Below, in pieces: positions 1 to 4,674 of a stretch of DNA of 4,674 bases. The first letter of the stretch is position 1. Each line of letters starts with the position of its first letter. Origin of the DNA: a virus (lineage: Duplodnaviria > Heunggongvirae > Uroviricota > Caudoviricetes); the IMG/VR virus record IMGVR_UViG_2744054872_000006, positions 1 to 4,674 of that record, one strand, 5' to 3'. The notes under the pieces are model-generated. The model did no database searches. It was not told the DNA's origin and saw nothing but the letters and a program-made list of their open reading frames with translations. The position numbers were made by a program, and so were the translations under genes.

Positions 1-1263
1 TCAGCGAACGTAAATAGTGCCGCCGTTCTCTTTTTCCCATGCATCGCTACGTGCATAGCAAACATCGAGAAGTCTTCTTGCCGCAGTTTCCTCTAAACCC
101 AATTCGACAACCAACTGCTCATGACGGCGGGTAACCACATCAAACAGGGTATGCAGCCCTTTAGTTGCCAGATCATCAATGAATTCCGGTTCGAACGGCA
201 GCTCTGCATCTGCCAACATAACCTCTTGCGCCCACTCAACTCGACGGACCAATTCCGGGCGGCGGCTTTCCATCTCTTTACAGATCAATTCATGGAAGAA
301 CTCTACCCAACCTTCCGGCTGAAACTCGCGGAAAATTGCCAACGGCTGGAAGTTTGGCATCAACCATTCGTTGATTCGGATATCAATGGCATAGCCCATG
401 TCGCAGCAGAACTGATAAGCAAAGTCCAGCTTAGAAACGATATAAGGACGCTCGTTATTGAACTCTTTAGGCGATGAGATCCCATAAGCCAGGAGGCGCG
501 GGAAGAAGGAGATTTGCCCTAACGTCGGATGAAGTTTGCTTGCAGGGAAACGGCGCTCAGTAATGCCATACATTTCCTTCTTGAGCGTCGCAAATTTGGC
601 ATTCTCATTAACCAGCGCGGTAACCTCTGCTTTTTTATTAGCAAATGCCACGCGCGCCTCGCTTGCATCTTTAATAGTTTTTTTGAGCTGTTGGTTAAGG
701 TCGGCGACCTGCTTACGCAGTTCCTGTCGCTCGCTTTTAGCTTTGTTATAGCGTTTCTCAAGGTTAAAAGGATCAAGTTTCATGATCTCTTTATATTGAG
801 ATTTTAGCGTTGAAATCTGTAAGTTCCGCAGTTCAACCATCGCGGTCATTTCATTGAGTTTTGTTTCCAGCTCAATGCTTATACGTTCGGCATTATCAGC
901 ACGCTGGTTGGCGTCATGCGTCGCATCGTCGATCGCGTCCTGTTGCTGGCGTTTCAAATGTTCAATTTGCAGCTGAAGCTCTTCAATTTCTTTACCCTTC
1001 AGACCGAGATCCAACTGCATATTTTCAGCTGCATCTACCAGGGAGTTATGGCTATCAGCTTCTGCGTTATAAACATCAATAAGCTGTGCGTGAAGCATCT
1101 CCGCTGACTGAACCGCATTATCAAAAAAACGTGCTGTGAGGTCATCACAACTAACGCGGCGTTGCGCGGCCCGGATGTTCTGGATAATGGCCGGAATACC
1201 GGCATTCAGGACATCAGGGATAGATACATTTTCGATTGATTGGTTTTGTGCTGAAGTGCTCAT
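1..1263 (-). CDS. Hypothetical coiled-coil protein (420 aa) with a long heptad-like, charged N-terminal half and a globular C-terminal domain; function unknown
   Basis: Long uninterrupted ORF with ATG at 1263-1261 and TGA at 3-1. The N-terminal ~230 aa are rich in E/K/Q/L repeats typical of coiled coils. The start lies 1 nt downstream of the stop of the 72-aa ORF (TGAAATG on the minus strand), suggesting translational coupling. The window begins exactly at this stop codon. No family recognised. Confidence 0.7.
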   Translation of the reverse strand: MSTSAQNQSIENVSIPDVLNAGIPAIIQNIRAAQRRVSCDDLTARFFDNAVQSAEMLHAQLIDVYNAEADSHNSLVDAAENMQLDLGLKGKEIEELQLQIEHLKRQQQDAIDDATHDANQRADNAERISIELETKLNEMTAMVELRNLQISTLKSQYKEIMKLDPFNLEKRYNKAKSERQELRKQVADLNQQLKKTIKDASEARVAFANKKAEVTALVNENAKFATLKKEMYGITERRFPASKLHPTLGQISFFPRLLAYGISSPKEFNNERPYIVSKLDFAYQFCCDMGYAIDIRINEWLMPNFQPLAIFREFQPEGWVEFFHELICKEMESRRPELVRRVEWAQEVMLADAELPFEPEFIDDLATKGLHTLFDVVTRRHEQLVVELGLEETAARRLLDVCYARSDAWEKENGGTIYVR

Positions 1264-1264
1264 T

Positions 1265-1483
1265 TCAAAGTTCCGTATTAGCTTGTGCTTCGGTCATTTT
1301 TCCTAAGTATGAAGGTGGAAGGACTACGCAATTTGTATCCAGTCCCTCACCTATGGCAGCCTGTAAAATTCTGGCTAAGGTGAGTCTCTTGTTGCGATAC
1401 CTGGTGATGACATGCCTGATACCGCCGGTCGGCGTAACAAAGGCGATCAGCCAGTAGTGATATTTCCGTCGGAATGGCCACAT
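1265..1483 (-). CDS. Small hypothetical protein (72 aa), possibly co-translated with the downstream 420-aa protein
   Basis: ATG at 1483-1481 is preceded on the minus strand by AAGGTG (plus 1488-1493) with a 4-nt spacer. The TGA stop at 1267-1265 sits 1 nt from the ATG of the 420-aa gene. Co-directional with all other genes. Protein family not recognised. Confidence 0.45.
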   Translation of the reverse strand: MWPFRRKYHYWLIAFVTPTGGIRHVITRYRNKRLTLARILQAAIGEGLDTNCVVLPPSYLGKMTEAQANTEL

Positions 1484-1487
1484 AGTG

Positions 1488-1493
1488 CACCTT
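1488..1493 (-). promoter_or_regulatory. Shine-Dalgarno-like sequence (AAGGTG) for the 72-aa ORF
   Basis: The minus strand reads AAGGTGCACTATG, placing a purine-rich GGTG core 4-5 nt upstream of the ATG at 1483. Confidence 0.4.
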
Positions 1494-1506
1494 GTAGATT
1501 GCTCTG

Positions 1507-1534
1507 ATAAAAAACATGATGAGTGTACATCACG
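1507..1534 (-). terminator. Candidate intrinsic terminator or RNA hairpin between the glycosyltransferase-like gene and the 72-aa ORF
   Basis: The minus-strand RNA would read CGUGAUG-UACACU-CAUCAUG followed by UUUUUUAU: a 7-bp stem including one G:U pair, a 6-nt loop and a U6 tract. The stem is AU-rich and therefore weak. It lies in the only sizeable AT-rich intergenic gap (1484-1580). Confidence 0.3.
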
Positions 1535-1580
1535 TTTTAAAAATAATGAATTATTAGAGCAATATTATTCTGATTCTCGC

Positions 1581-2267
1581 TCAAAAAAATGAGCTGATAA
1601 GGGGAAGCCAATCCTCTGACACTTCGCGAGGTCGCGGTTTGCCGTGGAAAAAGATTATTCGGCAGTCTTTTGGTAATGCCCCATTCCCCCTGGAGTAACG
1701 CGCGCTCGCATATTTCGAACCAGGTTCCACAACATCGGCCTTGTAACTTACAAACCATCCCGGATACAGATCCTGAAATGCTGGTGTATCATCACCCATA
1801 ACCTTCCGCAAAAACCCCTGATCACCCCAGCATTCAGTAGTAACACAACGAGCAATCCAACCTTCCGGATCTTGCCAGAATGCACTCCAGATATGCGCTT
1901 TTACACTATTTGGTATCCACAGGGCACCGCTGCCACGATATTGTGGATGGTAAAAATCCCTAAGCATGGTGAAGCTGGTTGGTGGATTCTCTAGGATTGG
2001 GCGTATATCACCGGCAATAACCGTGTCCAAATCCAGATAGAACAGATCATCGGTTATATCCGGTCGGAACAACTCGATTTTCGCCCACCAGCCACGGCAC
2101 TTTTGCCACTGGTTGATCAATGGGACAACTTTGACGCCAGGTACATGTAAACGCTTCAGGTCTGTCAGGCAAATAATTTCATAGCCTTTTGGCAGTTGAT
2201 TAACCAGCCACTGCACATCGGAAGCGTTATAGTCACCACCAGAGCGAAGAACTAAAGCAATCTTCAT
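1581..2267 (-). CDS. Putative GT-A-fold glycosyltransferase (228 aa) with a DXD motif, GT8-like
   Basis: ATG at 2267-2265 overlaps the TGA of the upstream phosphatase gene (ATGA, 4-nt overlap), with GGTG 4 nt upstream. The protein has an N-terminal [12 protein letters not shown] strand, a [18 protein letters not shown] segment (YLDxDxxV...DI, like the DXD nucleotide-sugar/metal site of GT-A enzymes) and a C-terminal [10 protein letters not shown] resembling the HxxGxxKPW motif of GT8 enzymes. Assignment is by motif memory only. Confidence 0.6.
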
Positions 2268-2956
2268 GCTGCACCATCACCTTTCACTTTCATCAATGTC
2301 AGGTTTCCGCAAAATACGGCACCTGTGTCGATATAATGCTGATTCCAGAATGTCTTCGGGCTTTTCACCGGAGTGTGACCAAAGATAAAACGATCTGCGC
2401 CAGAAATTTCGCCACCAATATCATCCATCGAATCACTGATACGCTCGCGCGCCCAGACAACGTTGAAAAGCGGCACCTCCTTACCGAATTGATATTCATT
2501 ATCCGGATAGTCGGCATGGGCTATAACGATAGTTTCTTGCCCGGTGTTCAACTCAATGATATAGGGCAGTCGTCTTACCAACTCCACCAGCGCCCTGGCT
2601 AATATTTCCTGATCAGCGTCCAGCATGAAGAACCATTGACCGCCATTCATTAGCCAGTTATTCACGTTGCCATCTGGACTTAACGCATCAATCATCAGCC
2701 GCTCATGGTTCCCCATCACTGCCCTGAACCAGGGCATCTGCAATAGTTCCAGACATTCGACATTTTCAGTACCGCGATCGATAAGGTCGCCGACCGATAT
2801 CAGTAAATCCTGCGCCGGGTCAAAATCCACACGATGGAGTTCGGACATCAGTCTGGTGTAGCAACCATGCAGATCACCAACAACCCAGACATTCCTGTAT
2901 TTGGTACCGTCGATACGGTGATAAATTGTGGGTGCCATCATGTATTCTTCAGCCAT
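2264..2956 (-). CDS. Serine/threonine protein phosphatase, calcineurin-like metallophosphoesterase (lambda orf221/NinI-type)
   Basis: Contains the PPP-family motifs VVGDLHGCY (GDxHG), VGDLIDRG (GDxxDR) and GNHE, plus a downstream FGHTP. It aligns along its whole length with lambda phosphatase as I remember it ([56 protein letters not shown]). The true start may be the ATG at 2941 or 2938 rather than 2956: these would give ATGA or TGATG overlap with the upstream stop and an N-terminus matching lambda's length. Confidence 0.9.
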
Positions 2957-3564
2957 TCTTTAAGAGTCATCTGCGGAATACCTCCCATTTTCCCGCATGA
3001 AACAACGTCAATCTGTTCACGCGCAGACTGGAATAACAAAGGCAGGTGACTTAGATTTTTTGGCGTGCCGCCGGAGTGAACGCGTGGTTCTTGTGTAGCG
3101 TCAACGCCCACCAGGGCGACATGTTTGAATCCGATATGGAAAGCCAGGTTCAGAGCACCATATGCACTATTGCCGCTGGCAATTTCATTCTCATCTTCAC
3201 AAAGGCCGAAATGTGCGGACCAGCGCCACGCCCACCACTCGGGAGAATTCGTATTTTTTGGCTCCGTGCCGCGCTCAGCCACACGACGGAAGCACAGAAC
3301 GCCATCTCTGACTTCACGTTCTTTAACATCGGGTAGTGCCATGCAATAACAAACACCACGGCGACGGCGGCCACGACCAACGCGCCGCATATTGTCTGGC
3401 GATGGATCAAGGGTGAAAAAATAAGAAGCGCGGTTAAGCCAGTCGATGGCCCCATTGACCGCTATAATCGGCACTCCGCGCGGCGCAACAAAGTTTGCGG
3501 CGCTTGGGCCACTGCCGACGATAATAACGCGATCACTGCCTCTAAATTTATTCTTGGGAAACAT
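2938..3564 (-). CDS. GSGPS-motif Rossmann-like transferase, paralog B (208 aa); GT42 sialyltransferase-like / DUF115 (MptE/Maf-like) candidate
   Basis: ATG at 3564-3562 with AGGAG (plus 3577-3581) 12 nt upstream. Carries VIIVGSGPS near the N-terminus, then IIAVNG, then [26 protein letters not shown]. This pattern recalls Campylobacter Cst-II (AGNGPSL ... RCN ... TSGxxxxAxAxALGYKxIYLxGID). It is clearly paralogous to the adjacent upstream gene. Contains an arginine-rich insert, [16 protein letters not shown]. Confidence 0.7.
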
Positions 3565-4124
3565 TGAATTGCACTGCTCCTACTTGCATTCAAAATATGT
3601 AAATCTGCGTGTTTTTTGCGGGTATCCAGGAACTGCTGTTGCCATTTTGAAATAGACACCTGCGTTGGATTCCGTAGGGCTTGAGGGTGCGCGCCATGCC
3701 AATGAAGGCCGTTTTGCAGAGAACAGTCATAGCCGACTAATACCACTACTTCAGCCCCTGATTCAGCAGCCAGACTGATAGCCTGCGCGCCGCTATTTAC
3801 CCCTTCCGCCGGTCCACAATATCGCCTGTACTCCAACGAAAATGATTTCGCCGCCGCCAGGTTGGCTGTCACTTTGCGGAATCTCCCTCCCGGTATGGTG
3901 GATCCGTATTGCTTCCACCATGACAAATCACCGGCGTATAAGGCATAAATGTCATCGAACATCTGCCAGGAATTGTTAACCGCGATGATTGAACAGCCAG
4001 TTTTTTCTATAGCAGCACAGTCCTCACGAGTGAGTGACGGACCGCTACCGACACAAAAAACAGTCCTAGTCGCCCTGGGTGGTATGTTCATTCTCAGCTG
4101 CAAATTCAGCCTCCAGGCGAGCAT
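3462..4124 (-). CDS. GSGPS-motif Rossmann-like transferase, paralog A (220 aa); GT42 sialyltransferase-like / DUF115 (MptE/Maf-like) candidate
   Basis: Carries FCVGSGPSL, IIAVNN and NSGAQAISLAAESGAEVVVLVGYD motifs collinear with paralog B. The start is uncertain: the ATG at 4124 has no SD, and the internal ATG at 4091 (Met12) gives an N-terminus of similar length to paralog B. The 3' end overlaps paralog B by 103 nt in another frame. Confidence 0.7.
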   Translation of the reverse strand: MLAWRLNLQLRMNIPPRATRTVFCVGSGPSLTREDCAAIEKTGCSIIAVNNSWQMFDDIYALYAGDLSWWKQYGSTIPGGRFRKVTANLAAAKSFSLEYRRYCGPAEGVNSGAQAISLAAESGAEVVVLVGYDCSLQNGLHWHGAHPQALRNPTQVSISKWQQQFLDTRKKHADLHILNASRSSAIQCFPRINLEAVIALLSSAVAQAPQTLLRRAECRL

Positions 4125-4221
4125 TCATTTCAGCGATTACCGGGTCCACTACAGCATCTGCTTCCTGTTCATTACGCGGCATGATCGATGCCAGCGATTC
4201 ATAATTAGCCTTGAATGACAC
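4066..4221 (-). CDS. Candidate small acidic protein (51 aa from GTG at 4221, or 38 aa from ATG at 4182), not in the supplied ORF track
   Basis: Hand translation of the minus strand gives VSFKANYESLASIMPRNEQEADAVVDPVIAEMNARLEAEFAAENEHTTQGD, ending at TAG 4068-4066. GGGAG (plus 4229-4233) lies 7 nt upstream of the GTG at 4221-4219. The ORF fills the otherwise empty gap between the VRR-NUC gene and paralog A, and overlaps the annotated 5' end of paralog A. Confidence 0.25.
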   Translation of the reverse strand: MSFKANYESLASIMPRNEQEADAVVDPVIAEMNARLEAEFAAENEHTTQGD

Positions 4222-4240
4222 GATTATTCTCCCGATGTTA

Positions 4241-4267
4241 ATGTGCGCTATATCAAAGAGCGCATAT
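4241..4267. promoter_or_regulatory. Imperfect inverted repeat (ATGTGCGC-N11-GCGCATAT) just downstream of the VRR-NUC stop; possible operator or RNA hairpin
   Basis: 8-bp arms with one mismatch and an 11-nt TATAT-containing spacer, seen directly in the sequence. Not followed by a clean U-tract on the minus strand, so not a canonical terminator. Confidence 0.2.
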
Positions 4268-4287
4268 GCACTAATTAATTTATTATT

Positions 4288-4674
4288 TTAAGCAGCATAC
4301 AACCACTTGTCGCCGTTCAATACATGCTCAATAGCCTCACCCTTTTTAAGGCTTATGTATTCCAGGATGGCGGTTATCGCTTGTTCTGCACCATACGCAA
4401 GAACGACGTAGTAACCTTCCTCTCTAAGCCTGCGCATCCAGGCGATCTGCTCTTTCGTCGGGGCTTTACCATTTGGTTCTTTAAGCTCAATTCGCATGCC
4501 GTGATAAATACCGCATGCTTTATCGAGACTCATGTCCGGATAACCTTTTTTCTGCCCTTCAGCCTTCATTTTCCCGGCGGTTGCTTTTGAACGTTTCCCT
4601 GGCTTTGTTGAATAAATCGAACTTTTGCTGAGTTGAAGGATCAGATCACGCATCCTCCCGACAACACAGACCAT
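4288..4674 (-). CDS. VRR-NUC domain protein (PD-(D/E)xK-type nuclease, 128 aa)
   Basis: The segment GYPDMSL...GMRIELKEPNGKAPTKEQIAWMRRLREEGYYVVLAYGAEQA matches the VRR-NUC pattern: a PD motif, then E-x-K, then a Q-containing helix and a hydrophobic strand. TAA stop at 4290-4288. The ATG is the last 3 nt of the window, so the start cannot be checked against upstream sequence. Confidence 0.75.
   Translation of the reverse strand: MVCVVGRMRDLILQLSKSSIYSTKPGKRSKATAGKMKAEGQKKGYPDMSLDKACGIYHGMRIELKEPNGKAPTKEQIAWMRRLREEGYYVVLAYGAEQAITAILEYISLKKGEAIEHVLNGDKWLYAA

Follow-up and report, generated by a model that had tools for sequence, protein, structure and literature searches.

Do pmgO and pmgP, two adjacent genes of phage P1, truly share a long stretch of DNA read in two frames, or does their overlap reflect an error of annotation or sequencing? 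The question was raised by a 4,674-nucleotide (nt) stretch of viral DNA (positions 1 to 4,674 of the IMG/VR record IMGVR_UViG_2744054872_000006; hereafter, the window), in which an earlier note, made from the sequence alone, had described a 103-nt out-of-frame overlap between two paralogous genes, A and B. The window is a segment of a P1-type phage-plasmid. Its positions 2900-4250 are 100% identical to the Escherichia coli plasmid NZ_CP032890, and megablast returned ~98% identity to P1, P7, RCS47 and SJ46, placing the site in the morphogenesis-proximal operon of P1 and P1-like phage-plasmids, all of whose genes in the window lie on the minus strand. The listing of open reading frames (ORFs) agrees with the note, with ORFs of 220 and 208 amino acids (aa) sharing positions 3462-3564, and these correspond to pmgO (A) and pmgP (B). 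As a bare observation, the overlap is already on record in the annotation of P1: the P1 reference of 2004 annotates the identical geometry (pmgO 79592-80254, pmgP 80152-80778), as does the NCBI Prokaryotic Genome Annotation Pipeline (PGAP) in NZ_CP032890. The analysis presented here leads us to consider it highly probable that pmgO/pmgP is a genuine and evolutionarily old terminal overlap of two co-transcribed, paralogous glycosyltransferase-like genes in phage P1.

The pmgO/pmgP junction recurs in divergent phages

In nine loci, P1 among them, pmgP was found directly 3' of pmgO, with PmgO identities of 40-74%. In each of them the pmgP ATG occurs at one particular conserved Cys codon of pmgO, pmgP is always in the -1 frame, and the length of the overlap (Table 1) equals 1 modulo 3. 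The upstream edge and the existence of the overlap are conserved across these relatives, and the PmgO tails differ among lineages in length (0-24 residues) and sequence.

The position of the pmgP start is narrowly defined by the sequence itself. The pmgP frame is closed by a TAG located 18 nt ahead of ATG 3564, with no start codon in between, and no ATG, GTG or TTG occurs in the pmgP frame between this ATG and the codons of the GSGPS motif. The Shine-Dalgarno (SD)-like AGGAG preceding the ATG includes the codon for the invariant Arg182 of PmgO (Table 1), and an RGGAG sequence at this Arg codon (AGG or CGG followed by AG) was found in 5 of 7 pair lineages versus 2 of 70 stand-alone pmgO homologs (Fisher p = 2e-5, the lineages being not fully independent). 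As the earlier note had it, the GSGPS motif of B lies on DNA that also encodes the tail of A (window 3502-3516), and 34 codons of B are involved; the share of A, put at about 25 codons, is actually 33 sense codons plus the stop. The paralogy of the two proteins also holds, with a profile-profile hhalign probability of 97.5% (E 7.5e-12, 165 columns) and a best structural match common to both.

On the pmgO side, homologs of PmgO (37-74% identity) measure 175-205 aa and their conserved sequence closes with "...NCSRxTxLxCFPRxxLExxL". About 90 stand-alone homologs end 4-8 residues past the 'LE' of the C-terminal helix, phrog_4603 matches PmgO residues 25-202 with its profile ending at 202, and hhalign places the C-terminus of PmgP opposite PmgO residue ~202. 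The note had proposed that A homologs ending at the equivalent of the C-terminus of B would speak against the overlap. Many do end there, and the overlap nonetheless survives, because the ATG of pmgP lies upstream of the conserved C-terminal helix of PmgO.

Homologs of pmgP present two N-terminal types, a 16-residue type (M[LF][PSQ]xxKxGxGxR) in about half of the clusters and a short type (MRAIIVASGPS); the 16-residue N-terminus is common to 56 of about 110 homolog clusters. Among four pmgP contexts sampled, the two of the M[LF][PS] type (L190 and L193) have an overlapping upstream pmgO, and the two others, one of the short type (L191) and one with an unrelated 16-residue N-terminus (L192), have none. 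The additional ~11 residues at the N-terminus of PmgP are thus a frame-shadow of the PmgO C-terminal helix.

The overlap comprises two zones under different constraint

The overlap can be divided into a 39-nt double-coding core adjoining the pmgP start and a 64-nt tail zone (Table 1). Both frames encode conserved sequence overall, and each sub-zone is conserved mainly in one of them. PmgO residues C188-L200 (CFPRxxLExxI), encoded by the core, are conserved in ~100 homologs, stand-alone ones included. PmgP codons 12-34 (R-x-I-I-V-G-S-G-P-S ... IIAVNG) are near-invariant, and codons 14-34, in the tail zone, run from the first beta strand through the GSGPS loop into IIAVNG. In AlphaFold2 models, the core corresponds to a confidently predicted part of PmgO (residues 191-200, predicted local distance difference test [pLDDT] 96) and a poorly predicted one of PmgP (residues 1-10, pLDDT 60), with the opposite pattern in the tail zone (PmgO residues 211-220, pLDDT 57; PmgP residues 11-40, pLDDT 96-97). 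The models point to a complementarity of order and disorder, in which each shared stretch is conserved and predicted to be ordered in one protein, and is variable and predicted to be disordered in the other.

Polymorphism was assessed on an unbiased sample chosen via the neighbouring Ppp protein (71 loci, 49 haplotypes), with sites outside the overlap as the comparison set in Fisher tests. No core site is polymorphic (0/39 vs 122/1025, p = 0.017), including the third positions of pmgP codons (0/13 vs 51/175, p = 0.02). The tail zone has 5 polymorphic sites in 64, and its pmgP third positions vary at a rate close to that of the rest (4/21 vs 51/175, p = 0.44). Over the whole overlap, third positions of pmgO, which are first positions of pmgP, are depleted of polymorphism (1/35 vs 36/167, p = 0.007). 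The core is constrained in both frames, and the tail zone in the pmgP frame only.

A 150-nt polymorphism desert covering the whole overlap, obtained with 80 loci (pmgP third positions 0/34, p = 1.6e-4), was rejected for the tail zone, because these loci had been picked for their closeness to the PmgO protein, a choice that filters out PmgO amino-acid changes and with them every pmgP-synonymous change in the overlap. In the Ppp-selected sample the depletion is gone from the tail zone and from the 59 nt upstream, and is retained in the 39-nt core.

The plus strand holds a 69-aa antisense ORF (3446-3655) that covers the entire overlap. Antisense frames at the junction are largely open in the relatives too, but the frames differ; with no other support for a gene, we treat this ORF as probably a shadow of the coding frames.

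Overlap length follows from stop-codon drift

The length of the overlap was compared with a stop-drift simulation in which the first 13 pmgP codons were fixed and the remaining synonymous codons were resampled. The first simulated stop in the pmgO frame fell at a median of 43-109 nt, with P(sim >= obs) between 0.17 and 0.88 across the observed lengths, and the conserved IIAVNG codons of pmgP usually close the pmgO frame at the latest. A length of 103 nt is expected from stop-codon drift and is not beyond chance; the ~40-nt core alone needs explaining. The ~64 nt past the core are most likely a tolerated read-through tail of PmgO.

Alternative explanations of the overlap

A frameshift introduced during sequencing or assembly, or else a recent mutation, could have lengthened pmgO artificially, as the earlier note had considered. 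The C-terminus of PmgO is indeed 18-19 residues longer than that of stand-alone homologs and of its paralog, so this part of the suggestion holds, and homopolymer frameshift variants are known elsewhere in the operon (in the PmgO variant P0002 and in pmgQ). However, none of 154 independent P1-like loci in IMG/VR carries an indel within 3462-3564, the four P1-like loci with indels having them elsewhere in pmgO or pmgP; the pmgO/pmgP region was found in 580 of 5426 complete E. coli genomes; and substitutions, not indels, separate P1 from relatives with earlier pmgO stops. Examined as a possible 3'-extension artefact, category iii of Palleja, Harrington and Bork (2008; PMC2478687), PmgO presents the length excess without the indel or error, and an overlap of 40 nt is left once the extension is removed, just as an overlap persists in the shortest natural version (L193, 40 nt). 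We regard an error or recent lengthening as so improbable that it can practically be set aside. A mis-called pmgP start, the other error that the note had envisaged, would place the true start at a GTG (Val31, window 3472-3474), yielding a 178-aa protein and a 13-nt overlap. This start is common in database entries (P0054, 178 aa, 373 member sequences, with similar truncations in P0162, P0147, P0151 and P0160), and in L087, L088 and L090 gene callers picked GTG starts with a 4-nt overlap. Yet it would remove the first beta strand and the GSGPS loop of PmgP, a segment in which an alignment of 50 sequences shows no variation at V16 and P20 and at least 90% conservation at I15, S18, G19 and S21, which hhalign shows to be homologous to the motif of PmgO itself, and which is modelled with the high confidence given above. 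In addition, phrog_2111 matches PmgP residues 1-208 with a profile of 208 positions, ATG 3564 is the sole canonical start ahead of the near-invariant GSGPS and recurs at one position in nine divergent lineages with an SD sequence present, and the depletion of polymorphism at pmgO-synonymous sites spans the overlap. The pattern of a 5'-extension artefact (category i of the same scheme) is absent, the pmgP start being needed for GSGPS. A wrong start is accordingly very hard to sustain.

Two further explanations accept the overlap and assign it a function. A programmed -1 ribosomal frameshift, yielding a PmgO-PmgP fusion alongside the separate proteins, would fit the -1 frame of pmgP in all nine lineages, the two X_XXY_YYZ heptamers found in the pmgO frame of P1 shortly after the ATG (T_TTC_CCA and A_AAT_TTA) and the existence of a natural in-frame A-B fusion (P0051). 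In the seven lineages scanned (all except L190 and L193), however, such heptamers are absent from L084, L088 and L090 and differ in sequence among P1, L085, L087 and L136; one is expected by chance in ~13% of such overlaps (1/256 per codon over 34 codons, by our own calculation). RNA folding at the junction is no better than that of shuffled sequences (z-scores of 0.61 and -0.21), leaving no stable downstream structure, and no Rfam family matches there. A slip at the heptamers would delete the conserved C-terminal helix of PmgO, and a single inherited junction automatically gives a constant -1 frame. Programmed frameshifting is thus very unlikely and is rejected. Somewhat less improbable, though still unlikely, is a genuine overlap in which the PmgO tail is functional in the P1 lineage, for instance by docking to PmgP, and the full 103 nt is selected. 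Of 150 P1-like loci, 146 have an identical tail and the variants are all singletons, and the predicted PmgO helix extends to residue 206, inside the tail. On the other side, pmgP-synonymous polymorphism has normal density in the tail zone, tails are wholly different between lineages with pmgP-synonymous divergence equal to that of the rest of the gene, the last ten PmgO residues are predicted with low confidence, and the overlap length matches the drift expectation.

Several observations weigh against reading the overlap as an old junction with a constrained core and a drifting tail. The pair lineages are dispersed over a neighbour-joining tree of PmgO sequences, the 12-nt spacing between the pmgP SD site and the ATG is longer than optimal, and the near-identity of the tail among P1-like loci also runs counter to it. 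Counts of pmgP codons that keep their amino acid yet differ synonymously between the nine lineages do support the two zones (fractions of 0.46 for the core, 0.69 for the tail zone and 0.64 for the remaining pmgP codons), but the synonymous sites in this comparison are near saturation and its pairs are non-independent, so that its p-values and those of the Fisher tests above are optimistic. There may be a weak, P1-lineage-specific constraint on the PmgO tail.

The distribution of the pair suggests either a single origin with recombination or cassette exchange at the 3' end of pmgO, or repeated loss. Stand-alone pmgO homologs (L093-L135, L184 and others) are usually followed not by pmgP, but by genes for a 290-313-aa protein and a ~205-aa protein. 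The former is putatively heptosyltransferase-like according to our reading of its GMxGLGDxIYQR motif, and in L184 a pmgO homolog is fused in frame to a protein of this type (492 aa in total). The genes downstream look like alternative glycosylation cassettes swapped 3' of pmgO.

A proposed mode of expression

ATG 3564, embedded in the conserved Cys188 codon of pmgO, is the one start available to pmgP. Because the last conserved helix of PmgO is encoded 3' of this ATG, ~40 nt must be read in two frames. Beyond the helix, the pmgO frame remains open until a chance stop (40-109 nt across lineages), and the resulting PmgO tail, non-conserved and probably disordered, is a frame-shadow of the PmgP GSGPS motif. 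PmgP would probably initiate independently on its own SD site inside pmgO while ribosomes translating pmgO run through.

The earlier note had invoked genome compaction and coupled translation to account for a genuine overlap. The overlap itself is supported, but it requires no appeal to compaction, and coupling of pmgP to pmgO by termination-reinitiation is unlikely at 40-109 nt, given how strongly such coupling is reported to depend on distance in E. coli (PMC10666635). Huber et al. (2023) found coupling nearly abolished at ~20 nt, for intergenic distances in which the stop lies upstream of the start, not for long overlaps (PMC10666635). No pmgO stop lies within a few nt of the pmgP start, the nearest being 103 nt downstream here and 40-109 nt downstream in relatives. 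An RNA structure that hides the pmgP start, with coupling by unfolding, was also considered and receives no support from the folding z-scores. Within window 3300-4300 no sigma-70-like promoter site was found.

The overlap might also be a selected expression device. With the ribosome-binding site and start of pmgP lying within the translated 3' end of pmgO, the flow of ribosomes along pmgO would determine the ratio of PmgO to PmgP, and the arrangement would lock the paralogs and the PmgP-PmgQ cassette into one inseparable module. We hold this to be unlikely, if less so than a function of the PmgO tail. Were it true, such locking would be the reason why the junction survived exchange among very different phages.

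Comparison with known overlapping genes

In the overprinted genes of small viruses, such as those of phiX174 and the lysis genes of RNA phages, one stretch of DNA is likewise read in two frames. They share with pmgO/pmgP the opposition of a constrained segment to a variable, disordered one and the suppression of synonymous variation. In pmgO/pmgP, by contrast, only the termini overlap and no new protein arises, the disordered parts being an N-terminal extension and a C-terminal tail, and with a genome of ~94 kb, unlike that of small viruses, compaction is no obvious driver. Gene pairs expressed through programmed -1 frameshifting include dnaX and the G/GT tail chaperones of lambda. The -1 frame of the downstream gene and the X_XXY_YYZ heptamers of P1 recall these pairs, but pmgO/pmgP lacks both a conserved slippery site and a stimulatory structure, and pmgP has a conserved start and an SD site of its own.

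Short overlaps of the coupling type (4-nt ATGA and 1-nt) are enriched among subunits of complexes (PMC10666635). Overlaps of this kind occur in the same operon, at pmgP/ppp (ATGA at 2938-2941, following PGAP) and ppp/pmgQ (4 nt). The pmgO/pmgP overlap differs from them in that the upstream stop lies 40-109 nt past the start and pmgP has its own SD site.

The closest parallel is holD-rimI of Enterobacteria (PMC2478687), also a co-directional, out-of-frame 3'/5' overlap that is conserved across genera and varies in length with the lineage (32-56 bp). Across the 338 genomes of one survey, no real co-directional overlap exceeded 60 bp, the longest real one being holD-rimI with up to 56 bp, which was judged real on the conservation of both protein ends (PMC2478687). 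With 103 nt here (40-109 nt across lineages), the pmgO/pmgP overlap surpasses it in length, joins paralogous partners and resides in phages and phage-plasmids rather than in a chromosome, and the PmgO tail fits the "3'-extension" pattern that the survey used as an error flag (PMC2478687). It constitutes a rare, well-supported exception to the 60-bp rule, whose rise is explained by a short constrained core and a drifting read-through tail.

Gene map of the window and consequences for annotation

Table 1. Features of the window, and lengths of the pmgO/pmgP overlap in nine lineages (aa, amino acids; nt, nucleotides; SD, Shine-Dalgarno).
Feature	Window position	Strand	Remarks
pmgO/pmgP out-of-frame overlap	3462-3564	-	103 nt (3x34+1); pmgP in -1 frame relative to pmgO
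Conserved double-coding core	3526-3564	-	39 nt; PmgO C188-L200 (fold end, helix from L194) and PmgP M1-V13
Tail zone	3462-3525	-	64 nt; PmgO L201-L220 and TAG stop (3462-3464), opposite PmgP codons 14-34
pmgP start ATG	3562-3564	-	its T and G open the pmgO Cys188 codon (TGT, 3561-3563)
SD-like AGGAG of pmgP	3577-3581	-	12 nt before ATG; pmgO invariant Arg182 codon (AGG) plus AG
pmgM (VRR-NUC)	window end	-	cut short by IS903-like element
pmgN	4066-4221	-
pmgO (paralog A)	3462-4124	-	220 aa as annotated in P1; GSGPS codons 26-30 (4035-4049)
pmgP (paralog B)	2938-3564	-	208 aa; GSGPS codons 17-21 (3502-3516)
ppp	2264-2956	-	as annotated in P1
pmgQ	1581-2267	-
pmgR	1265-1483	-
pmgS	1-1263	-
Overlap length, P1/window			103 nt
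Overlap length, L084 (Klebsiella)			70 nt
Overlap length, L085			49 nt
Overlap length, L087			109 nt
Overlap length, L088 (Citrobacter rodentium lambdoid prophage)			94 nt
Overlap length, L090			94 nt
Overlap length, L136			109 nt
Overlap length, L190			94 nt; pmgO uncalled by gene caller
Overlap length, L193			40 nt

With ~11% of complete E. coli genomes carrying the region, the overlap matters for annotation. Automated annotation variously cuts pmgP to 178 aa without the GSGPS (nucleotide-binding) motif, cuts pmgO to 166 aa or omits pmgO. PGAP at times starts pmgO at M55 (166 aa, with loss of GSGPS) or leaves the gene out (NZ_AP045735). The PmgO variant P0002 (174 aa, 48 member sequences) corresponds to one additional A in an A6 run of the pmgO coding strand (window 3612-3617), which shifts the reading into the pmgP frame, where it stops at the TAG 18 nt before the pmgP ATG; the extra base could be natural, making P0002 a pseudogene, or an error of homopolymer sequencing. 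The product name 'norphogenetic protein', a typo, is given to PmgP in the P1 RefSeq record and has spread to PmgO/PmgP homologs in NCBI, UniRef and nr; the original P1 GenBank record contains a pmgM note reading 'putative norphogenetic function'.

Other starts in the operon also deserve attention. The 59-nt overlap of pmgN and pmgO as annotated (window 4066-4124) may in truth be shorter: PmgO homologs begin later and PmgO residues 1-16 have pLDDT below 50 in the AlphaFold2 model, and the true start may be M12 (ATG at window 4091), with which the overlap would shrink to 26 nt. In the P1 reference annotation ppp starts at 2956 and overlaps pmgP by 19 nt (window 2938-2956), probably through an over-extended start; PGAP and the Klebsiella relative L084 place the ppp start at the ATG at 2939-2941, with a 4-nt ATGA overlap with the TGA stop of pmgP. 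Near the 3' end of pmgQ (window 1583-1589) the coding strand reads T7 (A7 on the plus strand), one base more than the T6 of P1, which alters the last residues of the protein (228 aa here vs 233 aa in P1), and PGAP flags pmgQ as 'frameshifted' in the identical plasmid NZ_CP032890. At the edge of the window (4601-4674), pmgM is interrupted by an IS903 element (IS5 family), whose end is matched at 96-97% by the final ~72 bases; in NZ_CP032890, PGAP calls a partial pmgM followed by an IS5-family transposase.

A phage-borne glycosylation module

The Pfam family MptE-like (PF01973) matches the two proteins at 23.4 and 20.9 bits, below its gathering cut-off of 34.6, and several PmgO/PmgP homologs carry precomputed PF01973 hits. 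AlphaFold2 models (mean pLDDT 85.7 for PmgO and 94.4 for PmgP) were compared with known structures using Foldseek. The best hit of both was the Maf flagellin glycosyltransferase 5mu5, with probability 1.00, E 2.4e-5 and a template-modelling (TM) score of 0.55 (query) for PmgO, and probability 1.00, E 5.6e-4 and TM 0.53 (query) for PmgP, which further matched 8sd5 (archaeal MptE HPPK) and then the Campylobacter sialyltransferases Cst-I/II. These models suggest that PmgO and PmgP share a Maf/MptE-like glycosyltransferase fold, and the newest PGAP annotation of PmgP reads 'motility associated factor glycosyltransferase family protein'. Besides the predicted fold, Maf, MptE-like and GT42 sialyltransferase-like enzymes have in common with both P1 proteins an N-terminal G-S-G-P-S loop after the first strand. 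PmgO and PmgP differ from Maf/MptE-like enzymes in being single-domain proteins of ~200 aa, sub-threshold in Pfam and phage-encoded together with the glycosyltransferase PmgQ. A sequence search of the PDB with the PmgO profile returned nothing significant, and no NCBIfam family was found for PmgO, PmgP or PmgQ, the fusion P0051 giving only a WaaZ match far below threshold.

Every locus that has pmgP also encodes a PmgQ-like glycosyltransferase (phrog_1962). Natural fusions join A to B (P0051 and the tandem-domain P0249) and B to PmgQ (P0189, P0277). None of pmgO, pmgP, ppp and pmgQ is essential for P1 to form plaques (PMC10695390; PMC9024508), and PmgO and PmgP are not reported as virion components in the P1 virion proteome paper (PMC9024508). 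PmgO, PmgP and PmgQ, all putative in their activity, probably act in one accessory, non-essential glycosylation pathway. In L191, an Ochrobactrum-type prophage, the pmgP-pmgQ homologs lie within head- and tail-completion gene clusters, as does the pmgO homolog of L089, a context which hints that the module may act on virion proteins.

The wider protein family comprises 2133 representative clusters. PmgO, PmgP and PmgQ are linked here as a phage-borne glycosylation module, widespread in temperate phages of Enterobacteria, and this module provides a concrete starting point for finding what P1 glycosylates.

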